DNA of 64,000 nucleotides from NCBI RefSeq assembly GCF_044628455.1, contig NZ_JBIYZW010000001.1, forward strand, positions 370,947 to 434,946, read 5' to 3'. The DNA comes from Hymenobacter sp. B81 (GTDB lineage: Bacteria; Bacteroidota; Bacteroidia; Cytophagales; Hymenobacteraceae). Both the position numbers and the translations under genes were made by a program. Shown in pieces: positions 5,258 through 54,039 of the stretch (position 1 is its first letter; each line of letters opens with the position of its first letter). The notes below the pieces were generated by a model that had not been told where the DNA came from, ran no database searches, and saw nothing but the letters and a program-made list of their open reading frames with translations.

Positions 5258-5677
5258 GCCGGCCGCCCGGCTTCCTTTGCTGCCGAACGCTGCTGCCTCT
5301 TTCTTAGGCCGGGCCGGAGTCCTCATTGGTCGCCAAAGCCACCAGCTAAAGTGAGTCGTTACTCAGCGGCGGCGCCGGACCGGCAAACCGGGGGGCTAAG
5401 CACCGGAAGTGGGCCGGCCGGACGGCTAAATGAGCTTAAAACCGGCCATATCGGATCTATATTTTATTTGCTGTTTCGGGAATTAAGATATTGTTAATTA
5501 ATGCATTGGCTGGTGGCGGTGTTAATATTTTCTTGATCGGGACTTGATAAGTTCGGCATGCGGGTGGAAGGCGATTCATTTGCTTTGATTCCGGAGCCAG
5601 GCTAGTTGGCCGGGGGCGCCTGCCCCAGTACCGGAAGCTTCCGCATCCTGCATCCGCCCCGTTATTTCCCTCCGCAT

Positions 5678-8740: not shown

Positions 8741-8748
8741 ACAGTCAT

Positions 8749-8795
8749 CAGTTGTGAGTTGTCAGGTCGTTCTGGCAACTGACAACTCATAACTG
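8749..8795 (+). promoter_or_regulatory. 17-bp-stem hairpin in the SusC-SusD intergenic spacer (CAGTTGTGAGTTGTCAG-13 nt-CTGACAACTCATAACTG), embedded in CAACTG-type short repeats
   Basis: Near-perfect inverted repeat (one G-U wobble) between the susC stop (8740) and susD ATG (8833). Confidence 0.55.
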
Positions 8796-8832
8796 GCAAC
8801 TCGCAACTGACCACCAGCAACCGACAACTGAC

Positions 8833-10464: not shown

Positions 10465-10534
10465 CCCCGGCCTGGTGCAGCCGGTCGGCCTGCGCCCCAC
10501 GCCTGATGGCGGTTGCCGTGCTCACTTTCCACCG

Positions 10535-11932: not shown

Positions 11933-11981
11933 CCTTTCCGGTAGGCGCGCCCGTTTGCAAAGCCAGCCCTTACTTCGCTTG

Positions 11982-14096: not shown

Positions 14097-14234
14097 ACCG
14101 GCCGCCGCGCCTCATTTCCGGCGCCGCGGCCCGGGCACTGAACCCATTGGCCGCCGCCAGCCTTTAGCAACTGCCCGGCCACCAGCCGTTCGCGCCACTG
14201 TCCTTTTCGAATAACCAGTTCTTTTCTGTTTGCT

Positions 14235-15632: not shown

Positions 15633-15738
15633 CGCCCGCTGCCGGTCGATTGCCTGCCGCCCCGCCGGGGCCTGGTTTCCCTACGGAAGCCGGGCTCGGG
15701 CGGGGCGGCCTGCTGACGGCAGGTCCCGGCTTGGCTGA

Positions 15739-18606: not shown

Positions 18607-18819
18607 GGGCAGAAGAAAGAAAAAGGCGTGAAGGCCGCGGCAACTTAGCCTTCCCCCGCGCCCGGAGCGCCCTGTAGTGTCCTGCCGGCCGCGAAAATTT
18701 CGGCGCGGCCCCCGGCGGCGCCCGGCCCGCCGGTCCTGGTTTTTTTCGGCGGGCAACCAACAAGCGCGCCGGCCGCGAGTTACCTTTGAACCTTGGCTTT
18801 CAGCCCCAAGGGCTTCAAC

Positions 18820-21387
18820 ATGAAACAACTATTACTCTTGCTGCTGATCGGCTGCGGGCTCCGCAGCCACGCCGCCCAGCTCACCTTTCGCGTCGACATG
18901 CGCCAGCAGACGGTGAGTCCCGCCGGCGTGCACGTGGCGGGCAGCTTTCAGTCGGAGGCGGGCTTTCCGGCCGACTGGAACCCGGCCACCACGGCCCTGA
19001 CCGACCCCGACAACGACGGCATTTACGAAGTGACGGTGACCGTGCCGGCGGGCACGTACCTCTACAAGTTTGTGAACGGCAACGGCTGGCCCGGCGCCGA
19101 GCTGCCCCCGGCCGACTGCGGCGTGGCCGACGGCGGGGGCAACGTGAACCGGCAGGTAACCCTGGGCGCCACCGACCTGCGCCTGCCCGCCCCGGTGTTC
19201 AACGGCTGCACGCCCCAGGTGCGCTTTGCCGTGAACATGCGCGGGCAGACGGTTTCGCGCGCCGGGGTGCACGTGGTAGGCAGCTTCCAGACCCTGGCCG
19301 GCTACGGCAGCAACTGGAACCCCACGGCCATTCCGCTCAGCGACGCCAACGGCGACCAGATCTACGAAGTACAGATTTCGCTGCCCGCCGGGGCCGTGTT
19401 CCAGTACCGCTTCGTGAACGGCAACACCCTGGCCGGGGCCGAGCCGGTGCCCGCCGCCTGCGGCACCGACGACGGCACCGGCACCCGGCAGCGCGTGCTC
19501 GACGCCACGGCCGCGGTAAACGCGCCGCCGGCGGTGTGCTTTGCCACCTGCACGCCCTGCGGCCCCTCGCTCACCAACTACGCCACCCACTGGTGGAACG
19601 ACGCGGTGTTCTACGAGGTGTTCGTGCGCAGCTTCTACGACAGCAACGGCGACGGCCGCGGCGACTTCGCCGGGCTGATGCAGAAGCTCGACTACCTCAA
19701 CGACGGCAACCCCACCACCAGCACCGACCTGGGCGTGACGGCCCTGTGGCTGATGCCCATGATGGAGTCGCCCAGCTACCACGGCTACGACGTGACCAAC
19801 TACAAGGCCACCGAGCCCGACTACGGCTCGATGGCCGACTTCGAGGCCCTGCTGGCCGCCGCCCACGCCCGCGGCATCAAGGTGATTGTGGATTTGGTGC
19901 TCAACCACACCTCCAGCCAGCACCCCTGGTTTACGCAGTCCACCAGCTCGACCAGCCCCTTCCGCAACTGGTACGTGTGGTCGGCCACCAACCCCGGCTT
20001 CCAGGGACCCTGGGGCCAGACGGTGTGGCACCGCCGCAGCAGCAGCTACTACTACGGCATCTTCTTCGACGGCATGCCCGATTTGAACTGGAGCAACCCC
20101 AGCGTGAAGGCCGCCATGTGGGACGTGAGCCGCTTCTGGCTGCAGAAGGGCGTCGACGGCTACCGCCTCGATGCCATCAAGTACCTCGACGAGGACGGCA
20201 CCCGCCTGGAAGACACGCCCGAGACCTTTGCCCTGCTCGAAGAATTTCACGACTCGGTGAAGGCTGTGAACCCCAACGCCTTTACCGTGGGCGAGGCCTG
20301 GTCGAACACCGCCGCTGTGGTGCCCTACGTGCTCAACGATCGGCTCGACGTGTGCTTTGAGTTCGACCTGGCCGCGGCTATCATCAACGGCGTGCGCTCG
20401 GGCAACCCCACGGGCCTGCGCAACCAGCTCAACACGGTGGAGCAAAGCTACCCCAAGCTGCAGTACGCCACCTTCCTCACCAACCACGACCAGAACCGCG
20501 TGCTGGGCGAGTTGGGCGGCAACCTGGCCCAGATGAAGCAGGCTGCGGCGCTGTACCTGACCTTGCCCGGCGTGCCCTTCCTGTACTACGGCGAGGAAGT
20601 GGGCATGCTCGGCACCGGCCCCGACGAAGACAAGCGCAAGCCCATGCAGTGGACGGCGGGCAGCCAGGCCGGCTTTACCAGCGGCACGCCCTGGCGCGGC
20701 GTCAACGGCAACTACGCGCAGTTCAACGTGGCTACCATGCAGGCCGACCCGGCCTCGCTGCTCAACCACTACAAGCAGCTGATCCGCCTGCGCACTACCC
20801 ACGAGGCGCTGCGCAAGGGCTATTATCTGCCCGTGACGGCCTCGAACGCCGCGCTGCTGAGCTACGCCCGCGTGTACCAGCAGGAAGCCGTGGTGATGGT
20901 GTCGAACTTCGGGGCCGGCGCCGCGAGCAACCCGGCCCTCACGCTGAGCGTGTCGTCGCTGCCGGCGGGCGTGTACCAGGTTACGGAGCTGTACTCGGGC
21001 CAGGCTGCGGGCACCGTTACCCTCAACGGCCAGGGCGGATTCAGCGCCTGGAGCGTGGCGCTGCCGGCCCTGGGCGCCGATGAAACCTGGCTGCTGCGCC
21101 TGGCGCCCCAGGCCCCCACGGCCACCAGGCCCGGTCAGCCGCTGCTGGCCCTGAACCTGTACCCCAACCCGGCCGCCGACCAGGTGAGCGTGGAGCTGAC
21201 CCAGGAAACCGGCGCAGCCCGCAGCGAGCTGCGCGTGTACGACCTGCAGGGCCGGCTGGTGCAAACCACCCGCTTCGCCGGCCGCCGGCACCTGCTCGAC
21301 ACCAGCCGCTGGGCGCGCGGCACTTACTTCGTGCGCATTCAGTCGGGCGCGGCCGTGGCCACGCAGCGGCTGGTGGTTACGCGCTAG
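18820..21387 (+). CDS. GH13 alpha-amylase with two N-terminal starch-binding-like beta-sandwich repeats and a C-terminal T9SS (Por) sorting domain
   Basis: Two ~100-aa repeats (FRVDMRQQTVSPAGVHVAGSF...YKFVNGNGW / FAVNMRGQTVSRAGVHVVGSF...YRFVNGNT); GH13 core (VIVDLVLNHTS, GYRLDAIKY, FLTNHDQNR, LYYGEEVGM); C-terminal LNLYPNPAADQVSVEL...GTYFVRIQ typical T9SS CTD. ATG at 18820. Confidence 0.9.
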   Translation: MKQLLLLLLIGCGLRSHAAQLTFRVDMRQQTVSPAGVHVAGSFQSEAGFPADWNPATTALTDPDNDGIYEVTVTVPAGTYLYKFVNGNGWPGAELPPADCGVADGGGNVNRQVTLGATDLRLPAPVFNGCTPQVRFAVNMRGQTVSRAGVHVVGSFQTLAGYGSNWNPTAIPLSDANGDQIYEVQISLPAGAVFQYRFVNGNTLAGAEPVPAACGTDDGTGTRQRVLDATAAVNAPPAVCFATCTPCGPSLTNYATHWWNDAVFYEVFVRSFYDSNGDGRGDFAGLMQKLDYLNDGNPTTSTDLGVTALWLMPMMESPSYHGYDVTNYKATEPDYGSMADFEALLAAAHARGIKVIVDLVLNHTSSQHPWFTQSTSSTSPFRNWYVWSATNPGFQGPWGQTVWHRRSSSYYYGIFFDGMPDLNWSNPSVKAAMWDVSRFWLQKGVDGYRLDAIKYLDEDGTRLEDTPETFALLEEFHDSVKAVNPNAFTVGEAWSNTAAVVPYVLNDRLDVCFEFDLAAAIINGVRSGNPTGLRNQLNTVEQSYPKLQYATFLTNHDQNRVLGELGGNLAQMKQAAALYLTLPGVPFLYYGEEVGMLGTGPDEDKRKPMQWTAGSQAGFTSGTPWRGVNGNYAQFNVATMQADPASLLNHYKQLIRLRTTHEALRKGYYLPVTASNAALLSYARVYQQEAVVMVSNFGAGAASNPALTLSVSSLPAGVYQVTELYSGQAAGTVTLNGQGGFSAWSVALPALGADETWLLRLAPQAPTATRPGQPLLALNLYPNPAADQVSVELTQETGAARSELRVYDLQGRLVQTTRFAGRRHLLDTSRWARGTYFVRIQSGAAVATQRLVVTR

Positions 21388-32667: not shown

Positions 32668-33084
32668 TTACCAGAAGCCGACGTACTCGATGAGGGCGTA
32701 GACGATGATGCCGGCGCCGAGCAGCAGGAACAGATAAAGCATGAAATCGGAGCCGGGGGCCATGATGGTGAAGGTGGTGGGGTCGGCGGGGAGGTAGCGC
32801 AGTCGCACGGTTTCGCCTTCGTGGTGGCTGGCGGGGTTGGTGCCCTGGTGGTAGCGGGCGGTTATCCACTCCTGCTGCGTCGTCAGGAAGCGCACGACGG
32901 GGACGTACACGGTGCTTCTGCGGCTGGTTTGTTCTTCCAGGCGAATGACGGTGCCGGTGGTTTCGGTGCCGTGGCGGCGGATGTGGGCGGCTTTGCGCAG
33001 CATCAGGATGGCCCCGATGAGAAAGAAGCCGCCGAAGACGACGAGCTGAATCAGGCGCTCATCGGCCGCGTCGAGGGTGGGCAT
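32668..33084 (-). CDS. DUF3592-like small membrane protein (TM, beta domain, TM), array member 1
   Basis: N-terminal TM, central beta-rich domain (TGTVIRLEEQ...VYVPVVRFLT...GETVRLRYLPADP), C-terminal TM. Confidence 0.55.
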   Translation of the reverse strand: MPTLDAADERLIQLVVFGGFFLIGAILMLRKAAHIRRHGTETTGTVIRLEEQTSRRSTVYVPVVRFLTTQQEWITARYHQGTNPASHHEGETVRLRYLPADPTTFTIMAPGSDFMLYLFLLLGAGIIVYALIEYVGFW

Positions 33085-33128: not shown

Positions 33129-33509
33129 TTAGAAAACAAGGCGCCAGAGCGCGTATAGAACCAGCCAGCCCCCGCCTATGGTGAGGCCATAGAACCCTAG
33201 CGGGGAACCTTCGCCGATGGCGTAGTGGCTGGGTACAGCGGGGTCGTAGAGGATGGGTACCTCGTCGCCGACGGTGTAGGCGCTGTGGTATACCAGGTCG
33301 GTAATTTTCTGCTGGGTACGGGTGGTGAAGCGGATGGTGGCCAGGCGGTCGTCTCCCTGGCCTTGTATAGCCACAACGGTGCCGCGGGTACGCTCGCCGT
33401 ATTCGACGAGTCGGGTGTAGCGGCGGCGGCTCAGCTGCCCTGCGGCCACCAGGGTTACGCCCAGTAGAAGCAGTAAAGCGGCGTCGGCGGTGGGGGAGAC
33501 AAGGGGCAT
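33129..33509 (-). CDS. DUF3592-like small membrane protein, array member 2
   Basis: Same architecture (RGTVVAIQGQG...TIRFTT...GDEVPILYDP...C-terminal TM). Confidence 0.55.
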   Translation of the reverse strand: MPLVSPTADAALLLLLGVTLVAAGQLSRRRYTRLVEYGERTRGTVVAIQGQGDDRLATIRFTTRTQQKITDLVYHSAYTVGDEVPILYDPAVPSHYAIGEGSPLGFYGLTIGGGWLVLYALWRLVF

Positions 33510-33613: not shown

Positions 33614-34015
33614 CTAAGGGAGATATTTCCATACGGCGTATACCAGTCCGCTAATTCCGAAGACTACAAGCATCCAGTCGCCGAAGCTTAGTCCCTGCCC
33701 ATCGATACTCACGCTGTTTGAGTCGGACAGATCAAAACGCACTGTGACTTCGTCGCCTTCTTTATAGCGGTCAGTAGTAATGCCAAAGCTGGAGCGGACT
33801 GTTATCAATTCCTGCTGAGCATTCTGGAAACGAATCACTGGATAAAAAGCCGGGGACTTACCTGCTTCGTAGTCAATCCAAATTACTGTGCCGGCCGCCG
33901 TTACGCCGGTTCGTTGTAGTCGAAATTTTTGACGCACTCTATACAGGGAAACCAGTGTGATAATCATACTTGGAACCGCTACAAGAATGAAACCTACGAT
34001 ATCAATACCCTCCAT
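33614..34015 (-). CDS. DUF3592-like small membrane protein, array member 3; low-GC (~47%) cassette
   Basis: TM-beta-TM architecture (TAAGTVIWIDYEAG...PVIRFQN...GDEVTVRFDL...C-terminal TM). Strongly AT-shifted codon usage versus the ~68% GC background. Lies 14 nt downstream of the giant-gene stop. Confidence 0.6.
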   Translation of the reverse strand: MEGIDIVGFILVAVPSMIITLVSLYRVRQKFRLQRTGVTAAGTVIWIDYEAGKSPAFYPVIRFQNAQQELITVRSSFGITTDRYKEGDEVTVRFDLSDSNSVSIDGQGLSFGDWMLVVFGISGLVYAVWKYLP

Positions 34016-34029
34016 AACTTATGTATTGT

Positions 34030-37000
34030 CTATTCCTGCTTTAGTGCCTCCCGGATGCCGCTGAGGCCGCCCGCAATGGCCTCCAGCCTGGTGAGCACCT
34101 GCAGCACCTGGCCGGTCTGGGAGTTGCGCAGGTTTTCCTGGTAGGTGTGCTTGATCTGCTGCCAGCGCTGCTGCTGCTCGGGGGTGAGCCAGCCGAGCAG
34201 CTCGCGCAGCTTGAGCAGGTTGGCTTCGGTGGCGCTGGTCAGGGTTTGGGCTTCGCTCTCGTAGTGGGCGGCCAGTAGCTGCTCGATTTCCTGCTCGTTC
34301 ATGACGGGGCGCACTTTCTCGGCCAGCTTGTTCATGTTGCGGTAGGAGCCCTGGAGCTTGAACGGCGGCTCGGTGCGGTAGGCGTCGGCCTGGGCGGCCG
34401 AGGCAATGTAGGCGGCGTTGACGCGGGCCACCACGTCGCGCAGGCGCAGCAGCTTCTGCAGCACGGCCACGTACTCGCTCAGCTCCTCGGGGGCGTGGTT
34501 GCCCTCGAAGGAGAGGCCGTCGGCCTGGTTGGTTTCGGCGAGGCGAATGAGGGTGGGCACGTCCTGCGGGGCCTGGCCGGCGAGGCGGGCCAGGGCGGCG
34601 TTGCTGGTGAGGGCGTTTTCGAGGTAGGAGAGGCGGAAGGCGTCTTCGGAGCCGGCCGTGAGAATGTCGCCGAGGTTGTAGATGTCGGCGCGGTTGGCCA
34701 GCATGTCGGGCAGCTTGAACACGTCGCCGGTTTCGGTGTAGGGGTTGCCGGCCATCACCACGCACACCTTGCGGCCGCGGAAGTCGTAGGTGCGGGCGCG
34801 GCCCTGGTACACGCCCTCAATCTTGCGCTGGGCGTCGCAGAGCGAGATAAACTTCTGCAGAAACTCGGGGTGGCAGTGCTGGATGTCGTCGACGTAAATC
34901 ATCACGTTGTCGCCCATCTCGAAGGCCAGGTTGAGCTTCTCCAGCTCCTGCCGCGCCCCGGCGTTGGGCGCCTGCGCCGGGTCGACGCTGGTGACGGCGT
35001 GGCCGATGGCCGGGCCGTTGATTTTCATGAAGATGAGGCCGAGGCGGTTGGCCACGTACTCCAGCAGGGTGGTCTTGCCGTAGCCCGGCGGCGAGATGAG
35101 CAGCAGCAGGCCCATGAGGTCGGTGCGCTTGCCTTCCCCGGCCGTGCCGATCTGCTTGGCCAGGTTGGCGCCGATGAGGGGCAGATACACCTGGTCGATG
35201 AGCTGGTTGCGCACGAAGGAGGTGAGCACGCGCGGGCGGAAATCGGCTAGGCGCATGTGCTCGGCGGCCTGGGTTAGCAGCTGCTTTTTCAGCTCGGCAA
35301 ACTGCTCGAACTGGGGCAGCGTGTGCTGGGCAAAGTGATGCAGGCGGCGGCGGAAGTGGGGAAAGTTGAGCTCGTAACTCGTTTTTTGTTTTTCGTTGCT
35401 CGTGACCAGACGCGGGTGGCTGCCGCGCATGTCGGGCAGCACTTCCGTGAGCGGGGTGCGAATGACGCGCTCGGGGGCATAGCTGCGGGAGGCGAGCAGG
35501 GCGGCAGTTTCGTCGCAAAATGCAGCCCAGACCGGGTGGCCGGCCTGCTGCAGGAAGGCCCGCAGCCACTGGCGAATCAGCTGGTACTGGGCGGCAGGCT
35601 GCTGGGCCAGGGCCGCTACCGACGCCTCGAAGGTGTCGGCGGCGCGGCGCTCTTTCAGGTGCTTCAGGAAAGCTTCGGAGAGGTCGGCGGCTTCGGCGGA
35701 AGTGGTGAAGGCGGGGGCCTCACCCCCCGGCCCCCTCTCCGAGGGAGAGGGGGAGCCAGACGACTGCTGAATTAGCTCGTGCAGCAGGTATTCGCCGGCT
35801 TCGGCAACTTCTTCGGGCGTGAACAGGCTGGTTTCCTGCGCGAACTGCTCAATGGCGGTTTGCAGCTCGGCGGTGAGCTTGCCGGTTTCGCGGGCGTCGG
35901 GGAAGACCTGTAGCAGCAGCGCCAGGCCCTGAATCTGGTGCTGCCAGTGGGCTTGCCGGTCGGCGGGGGCGAAGCGGTGCCAGTAGAGGTTGGCGGCGGC
36001 GCGGGTTTCGGTGGGGTAGCGCAGCAGGCCGGTGGCGCGGGTGAGGCGCACCAGGGCCGCGAGAATGAGGGCCGCGTCGTGGTCGTGCACGCCTTTGAGG
36101 TAGCCCTCGGCGTAGCGCGGGGCCATGTGCTGCTGCACGTAGGCCAGCAGGTCGGCGGGGCTCAGGCGTTCCAGCTCGGCTACCGACAGCGTGGCGGGGC
36201 GGCCTTCGGCGGCGGGCTGGGGGTGCTGGGCGGCGGTGAGCAGCTGGTAGGCCAGAAACTCGGCGCGGTACACGTCGTGGTTCTCGGAGGGCAGCGTCTG
36301 CTCCCACACCGGGCGGGCCTGCTCCACGGCGGCGTCCTCTACGGCGCGGTAGAAGTTGGTGCCGGTGAGGTGGTAGTGCAGCTGTCCGTCGCGCAGCACC
36401 AGCGTCAGCTCCAGCGGCTGGGTGTTCACGGTGAAGGTGTGCGGGCCGAAGCGCACGCCCTGGCCGCCGTCCACGAACAGGTCGGCGCGGTCCTTGAGCT
36501 GGCGCACGGCGTCTTCACGCACGGTTTTCAGGCGCGACTGGAGGTCGTCGGCCTTCACCGCGTCGCCCAACGCCAGCAGCTCGTCCACGGTGCGGCGCAC
36601 TTTCTCCACCATCACGTCGGCGGCGAAGTAGCCGTTGATGTCGGCCACCGCGGTGAGCTTGCTCACGCGATTCTGCACGGCTTTCAGCATGCGCTCGGCC
36701 GACTGTAGCAGGGCCGAGGCGCGCTGGTTGCGGGCGGCCACCAGGCTCTGCTTGCGGGCCTCGAAGGCTTCGTAGGCTTCCTCGCGGCGGGTGGCCAGCT
36801 GGCTCAGGAATTGGTCGAACTCGGGAAACTTGCCTTCCAGCTCCTCCAGTTGCACCATCAGGCGCGAGAGGTACTCGTCGCACTTGGCGGGCGTGTCGGA
36901 GAGGTCGAGGTAGTTCACCAGGGCCTGCTCCAGCAGCTTGAGTTGGGCGGCAAACTCGGCCTGGGCCTCGGTGCCGGCCAGGGCCTGGCGGCGGCGCTTG

Positions 37001-38994
37001 AGGGCGGCCCGCAGCTGGTTGAAGCCGGCGTAGATGCCCGAAATGTTGTCGATGATGCGCGTGGTCTGCGTCGGGTCGGCAATGGGCAGGTTGCCCACCA
37101 CTTCGATGAGCAATTCCAGCTCGGCGGCTACAGCATTCAGCTCCTGTTCGAGCTTGTTGGCTTCCGTCACCGTGGGCAGCTGCTCGATGCCCGCGCCCAG
37201 GGCCTGCACCCGCGCGGCGTAGGGCGTGAGGGCGTCATCGCGCAGCAGGAAGTCCACCGTGCGCTGGGCCACTTCCTGGCTCAAGCCCTGCAGCTCCCCG
37301 GCGGCTTTTTCCACGGCGGCCGCATCCACGTAGCGCAGCTCCTTCAGGGAAATGACTTCGCCGCGTACCTGGCGCAGGTCCGAGAGCTGCTGCACGTATT
37401 GCTGCACCTCGGTGGCGTCGGCGGTGCGCTTGATCAGGTCGCGCAGCTCGGCGGCGCGGCCCAGCACCTGCTGGGTGGTTTCCTGGGTGCTGCGGCGGAT
37501 GCGCTGCACCTTGTCGAACTCCTCCACGGCCGAGGTTGCGGCCTGCCGGATATCCTGCAGGGGCTCCGCGAGCTTTTCGGCGCCGGGCTCGGCCAGCCAG
37601 TGGTAGGAGTCCGATAGGGTAGTGGTGCGCCGGATCAGGTCGAGGTAGAGACCGGTGTAGGAGTCGTCCTTGCCGATGAGCGTGAGCACCTCCTGCGCCT
37701 CGGCCATGGCCCGCACAATTTCCTTGTTGCCGAGCTTGCCCAGGTAGCCGTCCTGCACCGCCGGCAGCTGAAAGTCGGGCGCGGTGTAGGGCGTCTGCCA
37801 GATCTGCACGGTGTGGTGCTTTTTGGGCTCCTCGTCGGCGCGGAAGTAGCACAGCTCGCCGTTTTCGAACAGGGCGTAGCCGTGGCAGACGATGGGCGCG
37901 GCCACCTTCTGGCTGATGAGATTGTAGCTCAGCAGCAAATACAGGCCGTTGTCCTTCTGGAAGAACACGTACAGAAAATCCTCGCCGTTGGGCGAGGCCA
38001 CGCGCTTCTCGAACACCAGCTCCTGGGGCACCTGCTCGAACTGCTTGCCGTCGCCGGTTTGCAGGTAGTAGCCGTGGGGAAAGATCAGGCCGTGGCCGTC
38101 GGGCAGCAGCACGCAGGCGTCGGCCAGCGCGTCGAGGCGCTGGGCCTGGCGCAGCTTGGTGTTGTAGAGGAAGTAGCGGAAGCCGGACTCCTGGTAGGGC
38201 CGGATTTTGAGCAAGACCAGCTGGCCGACCACCGCGTAGTGGATTTCGGCGTCGTCGAGGGTCTGGTCCTTGTTGTCGACGGGCTCGGAGTAAATACCCT
38301 GCCCGGTCTTGGTATTGTCTTCGACTTTGATGGTTAAATCCCCGCCCACCGTCTCCACGAACACCTTGTCTTCGATGCTGATGTGCGGGTGCTTGCCGGC
38401 CCGGTGCATGTCGCGGGTGGCGCGCTTCCACTGGAACTCGTGCTGGGGCGGGAAGGTGTACTCGTGGTCGGAGCGGTTGTCGAGATACACCAACGACTGG
38501 CCCTGCACCAGCCACTTAAAAGTCTTGATGTCGTTGGCCGTCTTGCCCACCCGGAACACCATGAACAGGTGCTCCCCGCGCTGGGCAAACTTGACGAAGC
38601 GCGTCTTCTTGTAGTACTTGTAGAGGTTGCGCAGCTCCTCCAGGAAGGCCTTGTCCTCGATCAGCGCCAAGCCCAGGGGCCGAAACTCCGGCCGCTGGTA
38701 CTGGTACACCCCGAACACGTCCTGCAAATCGACCTCGGTTTTGAGGCCCAGCAGCACGTTGTAGCCGAACAGGAACTTGTCGCCCAGCGCCACCATGTCC
38801 ATGGGCACGCAGTTGTGCTCGGTGGTGAGGCGCCCGGTACCCAGCAGCTGCCAGTCCAGGGCCCCAAACACCTGCTTGCGGGCGGTGTTGAGCTTGTCCA
38901 GCCGCACGCGCAGCTCCGAGCCGCCCTTGCTGAGGCGGTTGCGCAGGATTTCGTAGGTGCCGGTTTCAAGTTGAGGAGCGGCGGTAGTTTCCAT
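34030..38994 (-). CDS. Giant (1,654 aa) protein with C-terminal MoxR-like AAA+ ATPase module; N-terminal ~1,100 aa of unknown beta and coiled-coil regions
   Basis: Uninterrupted 4.96 kb ORF. C-terminal Walker A LISPPGYGKTTLLEYVANRLGL, Walker B VMIYVDDIQHC, sensor-like CVVMAGNPYTETGDVFKLPDMLANRADIYNL, colinear with MoxR/AAA_3-5 ATPases. Long predicted coiled-coil middle region. Carries a 36-nt in-frame palindromic element (SPSPSERGPGGE). Confidence 0.85.
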   Translation of the reverse strand: METTAAPQLETGTYEILRNRLSKGGSELRVRLDKLNTARKQVFGALDWQLLGTGRLTTEHNCVPMDMVALGDKFLFGYNVLLGLKTEVDLQDVFGVYQYQRPEFRPLGLALIEDKAFLEELRNLYKYYKKTRFVKFAQRGEHLFMVFRVGKTANDIKTFKWLVQGQSLVYLDNRSDHEYTFPPQHEFQWKRATRDMHRAGKHPHISIEDKVFVETVGGDLTIKVEDNTKTGQGIYSEPVDNKDQTLDDAEIHYAVVGQLVLLKIRPYQESGFRYFLYNTKLRQAQRLDALADACVLLPDGHGLIFPHGYYLQTGDGKQFEQVPQELVFEKRVASPNGEDFLYVFFQKDNGLYLLLSYNLISQKVAAPIVCHGYALFENGELCYFRADEEPKKHHTVQIWQTPYTAPDFQLPAVQDGYLGKLGNKEIVRAMAEAQEVLTLIGKDDSYTGLYLDLIRRTTTLSDSYHWLAEPGAEKLAEPLQDIRQAATSAVEEFDKVQRIRRSTQETTQQVLGRAAELRDLIKRTADATEVQQYVQQLSDLRQVRGEVISLKELRYVDAAAVEKAAGELQGLSQEVAQRTVDFLLRDDALTPYAARVQALGAGIEQLPTVTEANKLEQELNAVAAELELLIEVVGNLPIADPTQTTRIIDNISGIYAGFNQLRAALKRRRQALAGTEAQAEFAAQLKLLEQALVNYLDLSDTPAKCDEYLSRLMVQLEELEGKFPEFDQFLSQLATRREEAYEAFEARKQSLVAARNQRASALLQSAERMLKAVQNRVSKLTAVADINGYFAADVMVEKVRRTVDELLALGDAVKADDLQSRLKTVREDAVRQLKDRADLFVDGGQGVRFGPHTFTVNTQPLELTLVLRDGQLHYHLTGTNFYRAVEDAAVEQARPVWEQTLPSENHDVYRAEFLAYQLLTAAQHPQPAAEGRPATLSVAELERLSPADLLAYVQQHMAPRYAEGYLKGVHDHDAALILAALVRLTRATGLLRYPTETRAAANLYWHRFAPADRQAHWQHQIQGLALLLQVFPDARETGKLTAELQTAIEQFAQETSLFTPEEVAEAGEYLLHELIQQSSGSPSPSERGPGGEAPAFTTSAEAADLSEAFLKHLKERRAADTFEASVAALAQQPAAQYQLIRQWLRAFLQQAGHPVWAAFCDETAALLASRSYAPERVIRTPLTEVLPDMRGSHPRLVTSNEKQKTSYELNFPHFRRRLHHFAQHTLPQFEQFAELKKQLLTQAAEHMRLADFRPRVLTSFVRNQLIDQVYLPLIGANLAKQIGTAGEGKRTDLMGLLLLISPPGYGKTTLLEYVANRLGLIFMKINGPAIGHAVTSVDPAQAPNAGARQELEKLNLAFEMGDNVMIYVDDIQHCHPEFLQKFISLCDAQRKIEGVYQGRARTYDFRGRKVCVVMAGNPYTETGDVFKLPDMLANRADIYNLGDILTAGSEDAFRLSYLENALTSNAALARLAGQAPQDVPTLIRLAETNQADGLSFEGNHAPEELSEYVAVLQKLLRLRDVVARVNAAYIASAAQADAYRTEPPFKLQGSYRNMNKLAEKVRPVMNEQEIEQLLAAHYESEAQTLTSATEANLLKLRELLGWLTPEQQQRWQQIKHTYQENLRNSQTGQVLQVLTRLEAIAGGLSGIREALKQE
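35717..35757. repeat. Palindromic element copy 1 (GGCCCCCTCTCC-N4-GGAGAGGGGGAGCC), in-frame within the giant CDS
   Basis: Hairpin-forming inverted repeat, near-identical to copies at 39465 and 63876. Confidence 0.7.
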
Positions 38995-39037: not shown

Positions 39038-39403
39038 TTAGTCGTTGCGCTGCAGGCTGGCTTTCAACAGTGCCTGCGCTGGGTCGGCTTTGGCGTACAC
39101 GACGGCCGTGGTGTCGCCCTTCCGGTGGCCTCGCATGAAAGCACGGCTGGTGCGGGCGCGCAGCGTGTAGTCCTGCCCGCCCACGCGGTACCGAATCGTA
39201 ACGCGCCGGCTCTTGATGGTTCGCCGCCGGGTGATGATGCCCGTGGCAACGCCCGGGTTTTTCAAGATGAACGCCCGCTTTTGCCGGGTTTCCTGCCTGA
39301 CCTTGTACACAATGCCCACGCACAGGGCAATGGCCAGCACGATTCCCAAGAGCAGAGCCGCTACTTGCTTGCGGTTGGTAGATGTGGCGTTTAGGGTCGT
39401 CAC
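39038..39403 (-). CDS. Small N-terminally anchored membrane protein, DUF3592-like beta domain, no C-terminal TM
   Basis: GTG start; TM (AALLLGIVLAIALCVGIVY) then GVATGIITRRRT...VTIRYRVGGQDYTL...GDTTAVVYAKADP. Sits between flotillin and the giant gene. Confidence 0.45.
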   Translation of the reverse strand: MTTLNATSTNRKQVAALLLGIVLAIALCVGIVYKVRQETRQKRAFILKNPGVATGIITRRRTIKSRRVTIRYRVGGQDYTLRARTSRAFMRGHRKGDTTAVVYAKADPAQALLKASLQRND

Positions 39404-39464: not shown

Positions 39465-39494
39465 AGTCCCCCTCTCCGGCGGGGAGAGGGGGCT
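39465..39494. repeat. Palindromic element copy 2 (CCCCCTCTCCGGCGGGGAGAGGGGG), intergenic between flotillin stop and next gene
   Basis: Same inverted repeat core as 35717 and 63876. Confidence 0.7.
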
Positions 39495-39508: not shown

Positions 39509-41674
39509 TTAGTTGAGCGTACTCACCATCTTATCCGAGAGGCCCAGCATCTTGGCCGTGCCGGCCAGCTGGGTAATGGTGTTGCGCGTGGCGTCGTCGC
39601 CGGCCTTGTTCATCATTTGCAGCAGCAGGGCCGAGATGCTCAGGTTCTTCACGTCATCGGAACTGAGGCCGAACTGGTTTACGAACTTGGTGATGTTGGT
39701 TTTGAAGTCGCCGCCGTTGCCATCGAGCGGGAAAAAGGTGTCCTTCACTGTGGTCAGCACCTGGGAGTTGCCCACGGCGCGGTCGATGCTCTTGCCCTTG
39801 GTAATCGAGCCGATGATCTGGTCGAAGAACATGGTCTCGCCGCCCACGATGTCGATTTTGGCGGCTTTCAGCGCCTCGGCAATAACGCCCGACTGCGCGG
39901 CCGCAATGTCCTTCTGGATGCTGATTTCGGCCAGCTCCACGGCCTGGTCCTTGGCCAGGCGCAGCTTGAACTCCTCGTGCTCCTTGCCCACGCCGTCGAG
40001 CTTCTTCATGGCGTCGGCCTTGGCTTCGATGCCCTTGGCTTCCACCGCAAACTTCTCCTCGCTCACGCGCACTTCGGCCAGGCCCTTCTTCTGCTCGGCG
40101 TCGGCCATGGCGTCGATGACGTCCACGTCGACCATGGCCTTCTCGCGGTTGACCTTGGCGGCCACGATGCCGATTTTCTCGTCGGCTTCGGCCTGGGCGG
40201 CGGCTTTGGCCTGAATGGCCTGGGCCTCGGCCGAGGCGGTGAGCTGGAGCACGGTGGCCTCGGTTTCGCCTTCCTTCTGGCGGGCTACGGCCTTGGCCTG
40301 CATCACCTGCGCTTCGGCCAGGCCCACGGCAGTGGCTTTGCTGGCTTCGGCTTCGGCCAGGGTGCGAATGGCCTGGGCCTTGAACTCAGCCGAGGCTTTC
40401 TCGGCTTCGGCGTCGATAAGGGCCTGCTTGGCGCGGAACTCGGCGGCCTGCTTGGCCATGTCGGCTTCGCCCACCAGGCTCACCGTAGCAGCTTCGGCCT
40501 GCTGCTTGGCGGCCGTAATGGCTACCAGCTTGTCACGCTCGGCCTGGGCCTGGGCGCGGGTGTCCTTGATCTTTTCCTCTTCCTGCACGGTGGCCTTCTC
40601 CACCGCAATTCGCTCCCGGATGATGGCCTGGATGTTTTTGCGCTCCTCCTCCACGGCCTTTTCCTTCTCGATCTGGGCCAGGGCCACAATTCGCTCCCGC
40701 TCGTTGGCTTCCAGGGCCTGGGCCTGCGCCACGCGCTCGGTTTCCACCGCGTCGGTGCGCTGCTTGTTGCGCTCGGCCACCAGCACCTGCCGGTCGCGGT
40801 TCTGCTCGGCCACGCGCACTTCCTCCTCGGTGGTCAGGCGGGCGCGCTCCGATTTCAGGGTTTCTTCCTGCTGCACCTTGGCAATTTCGGCCGACTCGCG
40901 GGCCTTGATGCTGGCAATTTCGCGGCGCTGCTTTTCCTGGTTTTCGGTGAGCTGCTTTTCCAGCTGCAGGATGGTTTCCTGCGCTTCCACGTCCTGCTTC
41001 TTGATGGTCTTCTGGGTTTCCCGCTCGATGGCGTTGGCCTGAATCTTCTGCTCCGAGGTCAGGGCAATGATTTTCTTGATGCCCTCCGCGTCCAGGATGT
41101 TGTCGTGGTTCAGGGCCGACAGCGGTGTCTGCTCCAGGTAGTCGATGGCGCAGTCGTCGAGCACGTAGCCGTTCAGGTCGGTGCCGATGATGCGCAGGAT
41201 TTCCTGCTTGAATTGCTCGCGCGAGTTGTAGAGCTCGATGAAGTCAAACTGCTTGCCCACGGTCTTGAGGGCCTCCGAGAACTTGGCGTCGAAGAGGTTT
41301 TCCAGTGCGGCCGGGTCGGAGGCGCGACGGGCGCCGATGCTCTGGGCCACCTGCACCACGTCCTCGGCCGTTTTGTTGACGCGCACGAAGAAGTTCACCT
41401 TCACGTCGGCCCGCAGGTTGTCTTTGCACACGAGGCCTTCCTTGCCGGCGCGCTGAATGATGATGGTTTTCAGGGTGATGTCCATCACCTCGAGCTTGTG
41501 CAGCACGGGAATGACGAAGATGCCGGAAAACGACACGCGGGAGTCGCCCAGGCCGGTGCGCACCAGGGCTTCGCCCTGCACGGCCTTCTGGTACATCTTC
41601 ACCACAATGGCGACGATGCCCAGCAAAAACAGGCCGACTATAGCCAGCACTGCCAGGGATAATTGTTCAAGCAT
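39509..41674 (-). CDS. Flotillin-family (SPFH/band 7) protein with long EA-rich coiled-coil region (YqiK/FloT-like)
   Basis: N-terminal TM, SPFH domain (VRTGLGDSRVSFSGIFVIPVLHKLEVMDITLKTI...), ~350 aa of E/A/K/Q-rich heptads, conserved flotillin C-terminal region. ATG (MLEQLSL) at 41672-41674. Confidence 0.9.
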   Translation of the reverse strand: MLEQLSLAVLAIVGLFLLGIVAIVVKMYQKAVQGEALVRTGLGDSRVSFSGIFVIPVLHKLEVMDITLKTIIIQRAGKEGLVCKDNLRADVKVNFFVRVNKTAEDVVQVAQSIGARRASDPAALENLFDAKFSEALKTVGKQFDFIELYNSREQFKQEILRIIGTDLNGYVLDDCAIDYLEQTPLSALNHDNILDAEGIKKIIALTSEQKIQANAIERETQKTIKKQDVEAQETILQLEKQLTENQEKQRREIASIKARESAEIAKVQQEETLKSERARLTTEEEVRVAEQNRDRQVLVAERNKQRTDAVETERVAQAQALEANERERIVALAQIEKEKAVEEERKNIQAIIRERIAVEKATVQEEEKIKDTRAQAQAERDKLVAITAAKQQAEAATVSLVGEADMAKQAAEFRAKQALIDAEAEKASAEFKAQAIRTLAEAEASKATAVGLAEAQVMQAKAVARQKEGETEATVLQLTASAEAQAIQAKAAAQAEADEKIGIVAAKVNREKAMVDVDVIDAMADAEQKKGLAEVRVSEEKFAVEAKGIEAKADAMKKLDGVGKEHEEFKLRLAKDQAVELAEISIQKDIAAAQSGVIAEALKAAKIDIVGGETMFFDQIIGSITKGKSIDRAVGNSQVLTTVKDTFFPLDGNGGDFKTNITKFVNQFGLSSDDVKNLSISALLLQMMNKAGDDATRNTITQLAGTAKMLGLSDKMVSTLN

Positions 41675-41948: not shown

Positions 41949-42596
41949 TCAGCGGGCATCGTAGGGCTCGATCAGGTAGCAGCGGCGCGCGGCGTCGTAG
42001 TCGATGACCAGGGCCGTGTCGCCCTTGCGCAGCTCGCCGGAGGCCGCGCGCACATTGAGGGTGAGGGCGGCGCCCTCGGCCCGGATGCTGGCCTGGCCCA
42101 GGTGCTGGCGCGAAGTGGGCAGCAGCACGGTGCATACTTTGCCCACGGGGTTGAGGCTGCCGGCCTGGTCTTTTTCCAGGCTGGCAAACAGCTTCACGAA
42201 GGGCAGGGTAAGCACCTTGGCCACCAGCAGGCTGCCGATGAACAGCGGCACGGCCAGCACCAGCCCCAGCAGCAGCGAGTGGTTGCCGAGGTAGTAGTTG
42301 ACGAGGATGCTGCCCACCCACAGCGGCAGGGCCACGAAGCTCAGAAACACCATCAGCGGCACGCGACCCAGGTTGAAGAAGGCCAGCGCGTTGTTGATCC
42401 AGTCGACGCCCATGTGGGCGTGGTGCGGGCCGTGCGCGTCGGGACCCAGGTCGGCGTCGGGGCTCACGTGCAGGTCCAGGGTTTTGAAGTCGAGCAGGCC
42501 GACCATCACCGTGAGCCAGTAGAGCAGCACGAAAATGAGCAGGCCCGTGGCCAGCAGGTTGGGCGGGGAGGCCGCCGCGTGTAGCAATTCAGTCAT
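41949..42596 (-). CDS. YqiJ/DUF1449-family inner-membrane protein with C-terminal NfeD-like OB fold (flotillin partner)
   Basis: Multiple N-terminal TMs; C-terminal GKVCTVLLPTSRQHLGQASIRAEGAALTLNVRAASGELRKGDTALVID beta-barrel-like segment; directly upstream of flotillin as in E. coli yqiJK. Confidence 0.65.
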   Translation of the reverse strand: MTELLHAAASPPNLLATGLLIFVLLYWLTVMVGLLDFKTLDLHVSPDADLGPDAHGPHHAHMGVDWINNALAFFNLGRVPLMVFLSFVALPLWVGSILVNYYLGNHSLLLGLVLAVPLFIGSLLVAKVLTLPFVKLFASLEKDQAGSLNPVGKVCTVLLPTSRQHLGQASIRAEGAALTLNVRAASGELRKGDTALVIDYDAARRCYLIEPYDAR

Positions 42597-42673: not shown

Positions 42674-43387
42674 TTAGGCTGGGGGCGTGTTGAGGCCCAG
42701 CTTCTGCTTGAGGGCCTGCAGGTCGGCCGCGGCCTGGCCGCCCCCGGCCTGCAGCGCCCGGTCGATTTCCTGGTCGAGGCTTTTCTTTTCCTGGGCAATT
42801 TCGCCGTACGACTCGGCCAGGGCTTCTTCCACGGCTACTTTTTCCTTCATGCGCTCCAGCAAAGCCACCGTCCCCGACGAGTCGAGCTGGGCCAGCTGCT
42901 TGTTGATGGTTTTGGTGGCGGTGCTCACCGTCACGCGGGCCTTGAGGGTTTTTAGCTCGTTTTCCCACTGGCCGATGGTCTGGCGCAGGGTCTGCACGTT
43001 CTGGTCGAGCTGCTGCGCCGACTGCTCGAAGCGCTGCTGGTCGGCGGTGGCGCGGGTGGCGTGGGCTTCGTGCTCGGCCTTTTTACCCAGGGCTTCCCCG
43101 GCCAGACGGTCGGCTTCGGCAGTTGCCAGGTCTCCCTTGTGGGCGCGCTGCAGCAGCAGCACCGCTTTGTTTTCGTAGTCGAGGGCCTTGCTGCGGGAGC
43201 CCTCGGCCTCGTTGCGCGCCCGAATGCCCATGGCCTTCACCTCGGCCAGGGCCTGCAGGCTTTTGTCGAGGTCCTGGCGCAGGTCGCGCAGGGCCTGCTC
43301 GGTCATTTTGATGGGGTCTTCGAGCTGGTCGATGGCGGAGTGCGACTCGGCCTGGCCGATTTTGAAAAGACGGGCGAAGAGGTTCAT
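42674..43387 (-). CDS. pspA: PspA/IM30 (phage shock protein A / Vipp1) family protein
   Basis: MNLFARLFKIGQAESHSAIDQLEDPIKMTEQALRDLRQDL... canonical PspA N-terminus and coiled-coil body (237 aa). Confidence 0.9.
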   Translation of the reverse strand: MNLFARLFKIGQAESHSAIDQLEDPIKMTEQALRDLRQDLDKSLQALAEVKAMGIRARNEAEGSRSKALDYENKAVLLLQRAHKGDLATAEADRLAGEALGKKAEHEAHATRATADQQRFEQSAQQLDQNVQTLRQTIGQWENELKTLKARVTVSTATKTINKQLAQLDSSGTVALLERMKEKVAVEEALAESYGEIAQEKKSLDQEIDRALQAGGGQAAADLQALKQKLGLNTPPA

Positions 43388-43486: not shown

Positions 43487-43924
43487 CTAAGCCCTCGAAA
43501 AAGCTATCAGCTCCTCCGAAAACTCGCTGAGCAGCAAACTCAGGGAATTCAGCACGGCCTCCAGCTCCGAGAGGTCGAGGGTATCGATCTGCAGCGTGTC
43601 GCGGAAGATGACCTTGCGGCCGGAATCGTCGAGGGCGAAGGCGCCGTGGATGATGTCGCGGTTCTTCTGCAGCAGGCGCTGGTACACCTCGCACGAGGGA
43701 GCCGGCAGCTCCAGGAGGTACTGCTCCAAGATCAGGAGCGGCTCGCCGCAGCCCAGCACCAGGTTGCGGATGCCCTGCGCAGGGTGGTCGACGACCAGAA
43801 TGCCGTCCGATTCGTCGGCGTGGCGGATGTCGAAGCCCAGCGTGAGCAGGTGGCGGTGAATAGTGGCAAAGTAAGGGTTGGTCATAGGCAGGGTGCGGTG
43901 GGTAGGGTTATGAGCATGGCTCAA
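43487..43924 (-). CDS. Hypothetical protein (possibly YbjN-like), first gene of the psp/flotillin cluster
   Basis: 145-aa ORF, no TM; loose resemblance to YbjN-type putative sensory regulators only. Confidence 0.45.
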   Translation of the reverse strand: MSHAHNPTHRTLPMTNPYFATIHRHLLTLGFDIRHADESDGILVVDHPAQGIRNLVLGCGEPLLILEQYLLELPAPSCEVYQRLLQKNRDIIHGAFALDDSGRKVIFRDTLQIDTLDLSELEAVLNSLSLLLSEFSEELIAFSRA

Positions 43925-44036: not shown

Positions 44037-44816
44037 ATGTCCTACATCGGCAACAATATCCGCAAGATACGCACGGTTAAGAAGCTGAGCCAGGCGGCTT
44101 TTGCGGAGCTTTTCGGGCTGGCCCGGCCCAGCGTGGGTGCCTATGAAGAAGGGCGCTCCGAGCCCAAAATGGAGACCTTGATTCAGATTGCTCATCATTT
44201 TGGCTTGTCGGTAGACCTGCTACTGACGAAAGAATTGACCGTAAACGACCTCTACGGCTTCGATATCTTTCAGCAGGACATCCAGGCCGGGCCGGTAACC
44301 GATGCCGTGGCCGAGGCCGACAAGCTCAGCCAGGTAACGCCCTGGGTGAAGGCCGACCGCGTGCTGGAGTACATCGTGCACTACCACGATAAGGCGTTCG
44401 TGGACGCCCTGCCGGCCCTGACGCTGCCCCACGCGTTGGGTGCCGCCACGCGGGCCTTCGAGATTCAGGGAGCCGAAATGCAGCACCAGCAACAGGGCCT
44501 GCGCCACCAGGACGTGGTGCTCTGCCGCCGCGTCGACCGCGCCGCGCCGCTGCTGCGCCCCGGCCGCATCTACGCCTTCGTTACGGCCAGCCGCCTGCTG
44601 GTGCGCCGGCTGGTAGAGCGCCTGCCCGACGAAAAGCTCAAGCTGCGCGCCGACAACCCCGACTACGGCACGCTGGAATTTGCCCTCGACCAGGCCCTGG
44701 AAATTTGGGAAGTGAAAGCCGTGTTTACCACCCACCTGCGCCCGCCCTCGGCCCTGGAAGAGCGCGTGAGCCGGCTGGAGCAGCAGCTAGAGGAGCTGCT
44801 GGGGCGGCTGGAATAA
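44037..44816 (+). CDS. XRE-family HTH regulator with S24/LexA-like C-terminal domain
   Basis: N-terminal HTH (IRKIRTVKKLSQAAFAELFGLARPSVGAYEEGRSEP); C-terminal CI/LexA-like fold where the usual Ser-Lys dyad is not obviously conserved (GAEM in place of GDSM). Confidence 0.7.
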   Translation: MSYIGNNIRKIRTVKKLSQAAFAELFGLARPSVGAYEEGRSEPKMETLIQIAHHFGLSVDLLLTKELTVNDLYGFDIFQQDIQAGPVTDAVAEADKLSQVTPWVKADRVLEYIVHYHDKAFVDALPALTLPHALGAATRAFEIQGAEMQHQQQGLRHQDVVLCRRVDRAAPLLRPGRIYAFVTASRLLVRRLVERLPDEKLKLRADNPDYGTLEFALDQALEIWEVKAVFTTHLRPPSALEERVSRLEQQLEELLGRLE

Positions 44817-45468: not shown

Positions 45469-45888
45469 CTATTCGTCCAGACGCTCGAAGACGGGTAAAT
45501 AGCCCAGCACCTGCAAGGCGCCGATGCCCAGGAAGAGCAGGCCGATCAGCAGCAGGAACCCGGTGCCGGCCGGCCGGGCATCAGCCAGATCCACGTTTTC
45601 GGGGTCGAGCGGGTCGTATACCACCGCTATTTCCTGGCCCACGGCGTAGCGGCCCGCCTCGGCCGCCGACTCGGTTTCGGCTTCCACCGTGCGCCCGGCG
45701 GGCGTGGTAAAACGCACCCGGGGCGTAAGCAGCCGGCGCGCGGGCGTCAGCCCGATGAGCAGGGCCGCGGCCACGACGCCCCGCCGCTGCCGGGCACGCT
45801 GGTTGCGGCGGCCCAGCCCGGCCGCGGCCGTGAAGAACGCGCCCATTACCAGAAAGATGATGGCTTCGGCGGGAAAGATCAGGGGCAT
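45469..45888 (-). CDS. DUF3592-like small membrane protein (unlinked paralog), divergent from TetR
   Basis: TM, beta domain (VRFTTPAGRTVEAETESAAEAGRYAVGQEIAVVYDPLDPENV), TM. Confidence 0.5.
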   Translation of the reverse strand: MPLIFPAEAIIFLVMGAFFTAAAGLGRRNQRARQRRGVVAAALLIGLTPARRLLTPRVRFTTPAGRTVEAETESAAEAGRYAVGQEIAVVYDPLDPENVDLADARPAGTGFLLLIGLLFLGIGALQVLGYLPVFERLDE

Positions 45889-53937: not shown

Positions 53938-54039
53938 ACCCACGCGGTTGGGGGCGGCAGCATAGTCAAGCGGGCTGCCGCTCCCGCGCTACCAACTCTT
54001 TTTCGTCATGAAACCCACATAATCAACCTTTCTGCTGAC

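Follow-up and report, generated by a model that had tools for sequence, protein, structure and literature searches.

Domain architecture of a 1,654-residue ATPase

We analyzed a window of 64,000 nucleotides from Hymenobacter sp. B81 (contig NZ_JBIYZW010000001.1, positions 370,947 to 434,946; all positions below are counted from the first letter of the window), centering on a minus-strand gene that encodes a 1,654-residue ATPase. The gene stands last among the core genes of a conserved unit in which a YqiJ/NfeD-like gene is followed by a flotillin/YqiK-like gene and then by the ATPase gene. Its product is a member of the DUF3686-DUF7902-AAA+ family, as its domains, its motifs, the gene order and the accompanying CesT/Tir-like and PspA genes all indicate, and is 100% identical to an NCBI entry named “DNA repair ATPase” from Hymenobacter sp. 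B81. The open reading frame at 34030-38994, which had been proposed in an earlier note on this DNA, was confirmed: it runs without interruption, its G+C content at third codon positions (GC3 = 0.90) is that of the real genes of the window, and the N-terminus of the protein aligns with homologues starting at residue ~9.

The protein is soluble and cytoplasmic and consists of five parts, in the order β-propeller, ~400 residues of helical hairpins, mid-domain, variable linker, and AAA+ module with a helical tail. The parts and the motifs within them are as follows.

34030..38994, minus strand: complete gene for the propeller-helical-AAA+ protein, 1,654 residues (open reading frame and translation)
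37600..38916, minus strand: DUF3686, residues 27-465, with a helix at residues 11-43 and a β-propeller at residues ~49-400 (Pfam, AlphaFold2, Foldseek)
36475..37599, minus strand: long α-helical hairpin or bundle region, residues 466-840, including DUF7902 at 36985-37236 (DSSP on the AlphaFold2 model, Pfam)
35995..36462, minus strand: conserved globular mid-domain, residues 845-1000 (invariant columns, AlphaFold2 model)
35245..35994, minus strand: mostly helical, poorly conserved linker, residues 1001-1250, with a low-complexity insert at residues ~1076-1100 (conservation profile, translation)
34315..35232, minus strand: AAA+ module, residues 1255-1560, an α/β core plus helical lid of the MoxR/AAA_5 (CbbQ/NorQ-midasin-dynein) lineage
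35068..35094, minus strand: Walker A, SPPGYGKTT, residues 1301-1309, invariant (46-member alignment)
34885..34902, minus strand: Walker B, MIYVDD, residues 1365-1370 (46-member alignment)
34783..34824, minus strand: predicted pre-sensor-1 β-hairpin, residues 1391-1404 (AlphaFold2 model)
34678..34761, minus strand: sensor-1 strand and candidate arginine finger, VVMAGNPYTETGDVFKLPDMLANRADIY (VVMAGNPYTE...PDMLANRADIY), residues 1412-1439
34333..34380, minus strand: lid segment YRTEPPFKLQGSYRNM, residues 1539-1554, invariant (alignment, lid position in the model)
34033..34314, minus strand: C-terminal helical extension of three long helices, residues 1561-1654, its first half conserved (conservation, AlphaFold2)

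Two AlphaFold2 (AF2) models were built, of residues 1-1000 and residues 1195-1654, on the basis of alignments of diverse members of the family that were made by hand. The invariance of motifs was read from an alignment of 46 diverse homologues with 28-50% identity, and a second alignment of 20 sequences was used for the mid-domain.

The earlier note had called the N-terminal ~1,100 residues unrecognisable, and this did not hold. Pfam DUF3686 (PF12458) matches residues 27-465 over its entire length (profile positions 1-448 of 448; 642.6 bits against a cut-off of 25, E=3.5e-193), and DUF7902 (PF25472) matches residues 587-670 within the helical region (99.9 bits against a cut-off of 26, E=9e-29). 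Profile searches thus do place the protein in a known family, one whose function is uncharacterised; DUF3686 and DUF7902 are both families of unknown function, and what their profiles make recognisable in the N-terminal part is a family, not a function. A search of NCBIfam showed no family model for the 1,654-residue protein.

The note’s description of the N-terminal ~400 residues as β-rich agrees with the model of residues 1-1000, in which the mean predicted local distance difference test score (pLDDT) is 84.5 overall and about 90 across the DUF3686 part. An all-β domain at residues ~49-400 is modelled with about 28-29 strands, and Foldseek searches of the PDB with this domain returned the clathrin terminal domain, IFT-A, Elp1, the Kelch protein KLHDC3 and prolyl oligopeptidase, with E-values of about 1e-5 to 1e-6. 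Because these matches place the β domain among β-propellers, we assign DUF3686 as a propeller, which in the model is probably seven-bladed. The clathrin heavy-chain N-terminus and the IFT-A subunits, which are among the top Foldseek matches, likewise begin with a propeller that leads into an extended stretch of helices. However, coat and adaptor proteins have an α-solenoid and no AAA+ module, whereas the family described here combines long hairpins with an AAA+ module. Homology to protocoatomers or membrane coats was considered and dropped, as the TM-scores were 0.1-0.2 and the propeller was the one part covered; this is a resemblance and not evidence of relationship.

The coiled coil that the note had predicted for the central region was upheld in part. 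Long helices are indeed present, yet they are modelled as hairpins or bundles spanning residues ~417-840 and not as one long coiled coil; DSSP assigns helices at residues 476-523, 530-552, 558-583, 609-634, 641-698, 702-722, 727-777 and 812-839. The note had also passed over a conserved globular domain at residues ~845-1000. This mid-domain, modelled as a small β-sheet plus helices with low confidence in places, carries the invariant residues G850, F854, E904, G968, H970 and D973 and the motif EGYxKGVHDxDAA in the 46- and 20-sequence alignments. Neither residues 828-1000 nor residues 831-1195 gave a match in Pfam at relaxed thresholds or in a profile search of the PDB. The mid-domain, with its invariant glycine, histidine and aspartate residues, could serve to bind a ligand or a metal or act as a catalytic site. 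The linker that follows shows a conservation of 0.13-0.38 in the profile. Two further statements of the note were sound: a hydropathy scan of the 1,654-residue protein found no transmembrane segment, and flotillin-like and DUF3592 genes do adjoin the ATPase gene.

The AAA+ module and its lineage

In the C-terminal model (residues 1195-1654, pLDDT 84.9), an AAA+ α/β core is joined by a helical lid and by three more long helices at the C-terminus. Of the motifs quoted in the earlier note, GYGKTT is found at residue 1304, YVDDI at residue 1367 and VVMAGNPYTETGDVFKLPDMLANRADIY at residues 1412-1439. All three lie where it put them, and far from being degenerate the AAA+ motifs are invariant or nearly so across the 46 homologues; the family motifs SPPGYGKTT, DDIQH, AGNPYT, PDMLxNR and QGSYR are all present in the protein of the window, whose length also agrees with the 1,600-1,900 residues or so expected of the family. 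Sensor-1 N1417 and the candidate arginine finger R1435 are invariant, and so are R1540, P1543, F1545 and Q1548-R1552 of the lid segment, among which R1552 is a candidate sensor-2 arginine. Since Walker A, N1417, R1435 and R1552 do not vary, the nucleotide site is under selection. The Walker B motif departs from the canonical hhhhDE: D1369 and D1370 are invariant in the 46 members, giving hhhhDD, with an aspartate where the catalytic glutamate is usual. Because Walker B ends in DD and not DE, the protein is possibly a slow ATPase, and judging from these residues it may act as a nucleotide switch more than as a processive unfoldase.

Several lines of evidence bear on the lineage of this module. 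Foldseek matches to the AAA+ model (RuvB, CbbQ, NorQ, MCM, Clp and Lon) belong to the broader superclade with a pre-sensor-1 hairpin, and such a hairpin is predicted here, with strands at residues 1391-1396 and 1399-1404 between the Walker B and sensor-1 strands (local pLDDT about 84-94). The closest solved structures, at 14-17% identity, are two MoxR-family proteins, CbbQ (Rubisco activase, PDB 6l1q) and NorQ (from NorQD, PDB 9qh4). Among Pfam models, AAA_5 was the sole one whose alignment extended across both sensor 1 and the arginine finger; this model matched 27/27 members and gave 23.8-25.5 bits on the query (cut-off 22; profile positions 2-131 of 139). AAA_3, which represents MoxR proper, matched 1/27. 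With regard to a helix-2 insert, the 18 residues at 1327-1344, between β2 and α2, are highly conserved and confidently modelled and are not predicted as a hairpin. With regard to a pre-sensor-II insertion, about 90 helical residues lie between the first lid helix and the candidate sensor-2 arginine R1552 in the predicted model. Searches of PDB sequences with the whole protein and with a C-terminal profile matched just the P-loop segment of Cdc48, Rix7 and RuvB and were uninformative for the clade, on which the structural comparison is the more decisive guide.

The note’s label “MoxR-like” is therefore right as far as the CbbQ/NorQ-AAA_5 lineage is concerned. Taken strictly, membership of MoxR fails on several defining features, because there is no vWA partner in the loci examined, the protein is ~5x the size of MoxR, and its Walker B is DD. 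CbbQ and NorQ, each about 260 residues long, are stand-alone proteins that work with the vWA partners CbbO and NorD, whereas the ATPase described here has a 1,250-residue N-terminal extension, a ~95-residue C-terminal helical tail and the DD Walker B. We regard as highly doubtful the explanation that the protein is a canonical MoxR-type chaperone that matures a complex or inserts a cofactor together with a vWA/MIDAS partner encoded elsewhere. CbbQ and NorQ being the nearest solved structures speaks for it, as does the resemblance of the sensor-1/arginine-finger segment to the MoxR/AAA_5 signature. However, no vWA gene was found in the operon or flanks of the window or in the Pfam-annotated Pontibacter and Vibrio loci, the sole vWA domain in the 64-kb window belonging to a Ro60 orthologue; AAA_3 recognises a single one of the 27 members; and the conserved partners are flotillin and NfeD, beside a protein some five times too large.

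The database name raises another explanation, that the protein is a DNA repair ATPase. Its support consists of the names in source databases, the Pfam description line of DUF3686 (“ATPase involved in DNA repair”), weak RuvB_N matches and the presence of RuvB among the Foldseek matches. Against this, the RuvB model of NCBIfam reached 21 bits where the cut-off is 282, RuvB_N aligned at profile positions 25-72 of 159 and below its cut-off, and the likeness to RuvB was confined to the P-loop. No DNA-related or DNA-binding domain was detected, and the conserved neighbours are all membrane proteins. We consider a role in DNA repair extremely unlikely, and “DNA repair ATPase” is very probably a misnomer.

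Family distribution and conserved gene order

Homologues are numerous, with more than 5,400 matches in a word-indexed search and 955 clusters at 50% identity, and full-length members range from 1,590 to 2,036 residues. A scan of GTDB genomes found the family in at least 585 species, and it occurs in Bacteroidota, Planctomycetota, Verrucomicrobiota, Desulfobacterota and Clostridia, as well as in Vibrio. Nearly all Hymenobacter species carry a homologue of the ATPase, with 66-91% identity, and one of these Hymenobacter homologues is plasmid-borne.

In the window, the operon and its surroundings contain the following genes besides the ATPase gene.

44037..44816, plus strand: divergent regulator with XRE helix-turn-helix (HTH) and Peptidase_S24-like domains, LexA/CI-like (Pfam HTH_3, Peptidase_S24)
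43487..43924, minus strand: CesT/Tir-like (YbjN-like) chaperone gene, first in the operon (Pfam PF22550, E=1.1e-51)
42674..43387, minus strand: PspA/IM30 gene, ESCRT-III superfamily (Pfam PF04012, E=7.7e-39)
41949..42596, minus strand: YqiJ/YuaF (NfeD)-like membrane protein with about 3-4 transmembrane segments and a C-terminal soluble domain (translation, hydropathy)
39509..41674, minus strand: flotillin/YqiK-like partner, directly upstream, with a transmembrane segment, an SPFH-like domain, a long coiled coil and a conserved C-terminal domain
39038..39403, minus strand: small DUF3592 membrane protein, between the flotillin and ATPase genes (Pfam PF12158)
33614-34015, 33129-33509 and 32668-33084, minus strand: three tandem DUF3592 paralogues 3' of the ATPase gene (Pfam, transmembrane segments)

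Homologues of the flotillin-like partner are named “flotillin family protein” or “YqiK”, and its layout is that of a transmembrane segment, a globular domain and a long coiled coil. The C-terminal 150 residues of such partners are conserved across aligned relatives, a conservation that may be general to flotillins. We follow a 2024 mSystems paper (PMC11237479) in the putative assignment of the YqiJ/YuaF (NfeD)-like protein.

The proteins neighbouring the ATPase in the window were searched for by tblastn in 81 loci. Of the 66 loci that extend far enough upstream, 63 have a flotillin-like gene immediately before the ATPase gene and in the same orientation, and in 55 of these 63 the flotillin-like gene is itself preceded by a YqiJ/NfeD-like gene encoding a protein with multiple transmembrane segments. 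In Vibrio, where the ATPase is 29% identical to the query, the triad of NfeD-like, flotillin-like and ATPase genes is likewise present. In 20 loci, all of them from Bacteroidota, CesT/Tir-like and PspA genes both precede the triad. A divergent XRE-HTH/Peptidase_S24-like regulator lies next to CesT in 20/20 of these CesT-PspA loci, and in exactly those 20. The divergent XRE/S24 protein is a probable regulator of the operon, and since its gene is kept in all 20 CesT-PspA loci, control of the operon that is triggered by stress and possibly autoproteolytic is suggested.

In Vibrio chagasii (CALSKE010000011.1, 2022-16303), the triad is flanked by genes for an RNA ligase, AAA_33/HD and R2K proteins, a HipA-HTH toxin-antitoxin and TelA, surroundings that look like a stress or conflict island. 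This brings up the explanation that the flotillin-NfeD-ATPase unit is a conflict or defence module, a membrane-integrity sensor and effector directed against phage or toxin attack, and not a housekeeping system for membrane maintenance. Besides the Vibrio neighbourhood, the LexA/CI-like XRE-S24 regulator of the Bacteroidota form would fit such a role, as would the plasmid location of one Hymenobacter homologue and the fact that PspA is a phage-shock protein. However, the seven operon proteins, among them the ATPase and the flotillin-like, NfeD-like, CesT-like and DUF3592 proteins, matched no model of PADLOC-DB v2 save weak, spurious coiled-coil matches for PspA; domain searches showed no effector of the nuclease, protease or pore-forming kind; and the family is broad and apparently stable within genera. 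Taken together, these points make a defence function improbable in our assessment.

Two further features accompany the operon in the window. A fifth DUF3592 paralogue lies at 45469-45888, so that five surround the operon, all on the minus strand; in related loci, such paralogues occur in Hymenobacter only. A strong GC-rich hairpin at 39468-39492 (minus strand; 10-bp stem with 8 G-C pairs) directly follows the stop codon of the flotillin-like gene, ahead of the DUF3592 and ATPase genes, and may be an attenuator or processing site setting the flotillin:ATPase ratio. A scan for sigma-70 promoters gave 1 match against 1.7 expected, with a consensus that differs from Bacteroidota promoters.

Other loci in the window

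The window also contains an RNA-repair locus at 52408-58919 (plus strand), which consists of a Ro60/Rsr orthologue (TROVE and vWA_Ro60 domains, 52408-53937), a 1.1-kb gap and two RtcB ligase genes at 55059-56537 and 57264-58919. Within the gap 3' of Ro60, three sub-threshold matches to the Y RNA-like family YrlA (RF02553) lie at 54250-54325, 54429-54498 and 54734-54796. These matches reach 30-41 bits where the gathering score is 69 (E=2e-7 to 4e-4 over the 1.2-kb region). They are probably Y-like RNAs with tRNA-like modules, too divergent to pass the gathering threshold. At 5606-21387, a locus for the utilisation of starch/α-glucan encodes a SusC-like TonB receptor, a SusD-like protein, three α-amylase-family proteins, GH97 and GH2 enzymes and a pullulanase-like enzyme with a type IX secretion system (T9SS) tail. 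At 59316-63716 (minus strand), a gene encodes a secreted protein of 1,466 residues that contains three DUF4394 repeats (E=6e-198) and ends in a T9SS sorting domain.

Proposed role of the family

Because the ATPase gene almost always lies just after the flotillin gene, the reshaping of membrane scaffolds is the most likely role of its product, and not DNA repair. We give about an even chance to the reading that the protein is a cytoplasmic, nucleotide-driven remodeller or switch for the membrane scaffolds formed by flotillin (and PspA). In such a mechanism, the AAA+ modules would oligomerise as a ring, probably a hexamer, and the propeller and helical arms would bind the cytoplasmic face of the flotillin/NfeD assembly, as well as PspA polymers where these are present. 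ATP binding and hydrolysis would then drive or gate the assembly, remodelling or disassembly of the scaffold during envelope stress, with the XRE/S24 regulator controlling expression of the operon. The role may be likened to that of Vps4 on ESCRT-III or of FtsH within HflK/C cages.

These comparisons can be drawn more closely. An SPFH scaffold is paired genetically with an AAA+ ATPase in HflK/C-FtsH and in prohibitin and the m-AAA protease, and the NfeD partner is as in stomatin/NfeD operons. FtsH is membrane-embedded, of the classical clade and fused to a protease, whereas the ATPase described here, a soluble protein that lacks a protease domain, would face the flotillin assembly from its cytoplasmic side. 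As with Vps4, an AAA+ ATPase is encoded beside a gene of the ESCRT-III superfamily (PspA) in the Bacteroidota form, and the role of energy source is proposed by analogy. Vps4 and its classical-clade relatives, however, have a core that lacks the pre-sensor-1 hairpin and bear an MIT domain for ESCRT-III, and on both counts the 1,654-residue ATPase falls outside that group.

A number of observations weigh against a scaffold remodeller. Gene linkage shows neither physical interaction nor which partner is the substrate, and the fractions given here are not unbiased, coming as they do from the 80 genome loci with the greatest similarity to the query. The PspA gene is present in 22 of the 81 loci, all of Bacteroidota, and three of the 66 loci, from metagenome-assembled genomes of Desulfobacteraceae, Cytophagaceae and Bacteroidia, lack a flotillin-like gene in the 10 kb upstream, as exceptions to a linkage that is otherwise nearly universal. 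The flotillin assignment is itself putative: Pfam and NCBIfam gave no match to the flotillin-like and NfeD-like neighbours, and the identity rests on source names, a weak match to human Flotillin-2 in the PDB (E=0.086), the layout of transmembrane segment and coiled coil, and PMC11237479. The DD Walker B and the lack of a recognisable pore-loop aromatic residue speak against a classical threading unfoldase. MoxR-lineage ATPases, moreover, usually act through vWA/MIDAS partners, and the operon here has none. Finally, in the literature searched, no paper mentioned DUF3686 or PF12458, none connected a “DNA repair ATPase” with flotillin, and no experimental study was found.

The invariant D1369/D1370 and the missing catalytic glutamate in all 46 members also invite a variant of the remodeller model, in which the protein is a slow, nucleotide-gated scaffold or assembly factor, a switch like DnaA/ORC and not a motor, whose ATP state nucleates or caps flotillin/NfeD microdomains. 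Its large non-ATPase mass (the propeller and about 400 residues of helices) is typical of scaffolds, and the best Foldseek matches include the clathrin heavy-chain terminal domain plus linker and IFT-A; the flotillin linkage counts equally for this variant and for an active remodeller. On the other hand, the invariance of R1435, N1417 and R1552 suggests that ATP hydrolysis is important, CbbQ, NorQ and midasin, which are nearest in structure, are active remodellers, and the resemblance to coat proteins amounts to TM-scores of 0.1-0.2 and covers just the propeller. Overall, we find the slow-switch variant unlikely.

The remodeller reading can also be put in a bolder and more tentative form, which we offer as a possibility. 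The family would be the missing remodeller that spends energy on bacterial flotillin (SPFH) assemblies and, in the case of Bacteroidota, on PspA/ESCRT-III polymers as well, built as an AAA+ ring of the MoxR/dynein lineage with six propeller-tipped helical arms gripping the cytoplasmic flotillin dome or its NfeD partner. If this were true, nucleotide would power or gate the assembly and disassembly of the dome, and a functional parallel to Vps4 or NSF would have evolved independently and spread across at least five bacterial phyla.

Relation to published work and significance

The existence of the protein is not new, since its architecture and operon were published in 2024 and its domains are in Pfam. 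PMC11237479 reports CesT/Tir-PspA-YqiJ/YuaF-Band-7/flotillin operons with a “β-propeller + coiled-coil + AAA+ ATPase”, with an example from Dokdonia donghaensis next to ANH61663.1 and, in Table S3, a divergent “cHTH+Protease” gene. It also describes shortened flotillin-YqiJ-ATPase operons, without PspA, as widely distributed, and its authors propose a role in membrane dynamics and the assembly of membrane-associated complexes. Nothing essential differs between their system and the window, to which Hymenobacter adds the DUF3592 paralogues. Their account is centred on PspA, whereas in the loci sampled here flotillin/NfeD is the constant element (63/66, against 22/81 for PspA), and the text of the paper, as far as it was available, assigns neither the AAA+ clade nor the DD Walker B nor the conserved mid-domain. 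A 2025 review (PMC7619361) states that bacteria seem to have no Vps4-like ATPase for PspA, and that it is still undetermined what the newly found partners of PspA do. Broader literature searches yielded just two comparative-genomics papers on the phage-shock-protein (PSP) system and reviews of ESCRT. New in our analysis are the structural clade of the ATPase, its invariant DD Walker B, the uncharacterised mid-domain, flotillin/NfeD rather than PspA as the constant partner in the sampled loci, and the strict co-occurrence of XRE/S24 with CesT-PspA.

For databases, the consequence is that thousands of entries named “DNA repair ATPase” are very probably misnamed. The family carries its flotillin/NfeD linkage in at least several hundred species and its PspA linkage in Bacteroidota, and its hosts include the culturable genera Hymenobacter, Flavobacterium, Bacteroides and Vibrio. 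It is poorly understood how the large oligomers that flotillins and PspA form on bacterial membranes are assembled and turned over, and this family is an obvious candidate for the source of energy in these processes.

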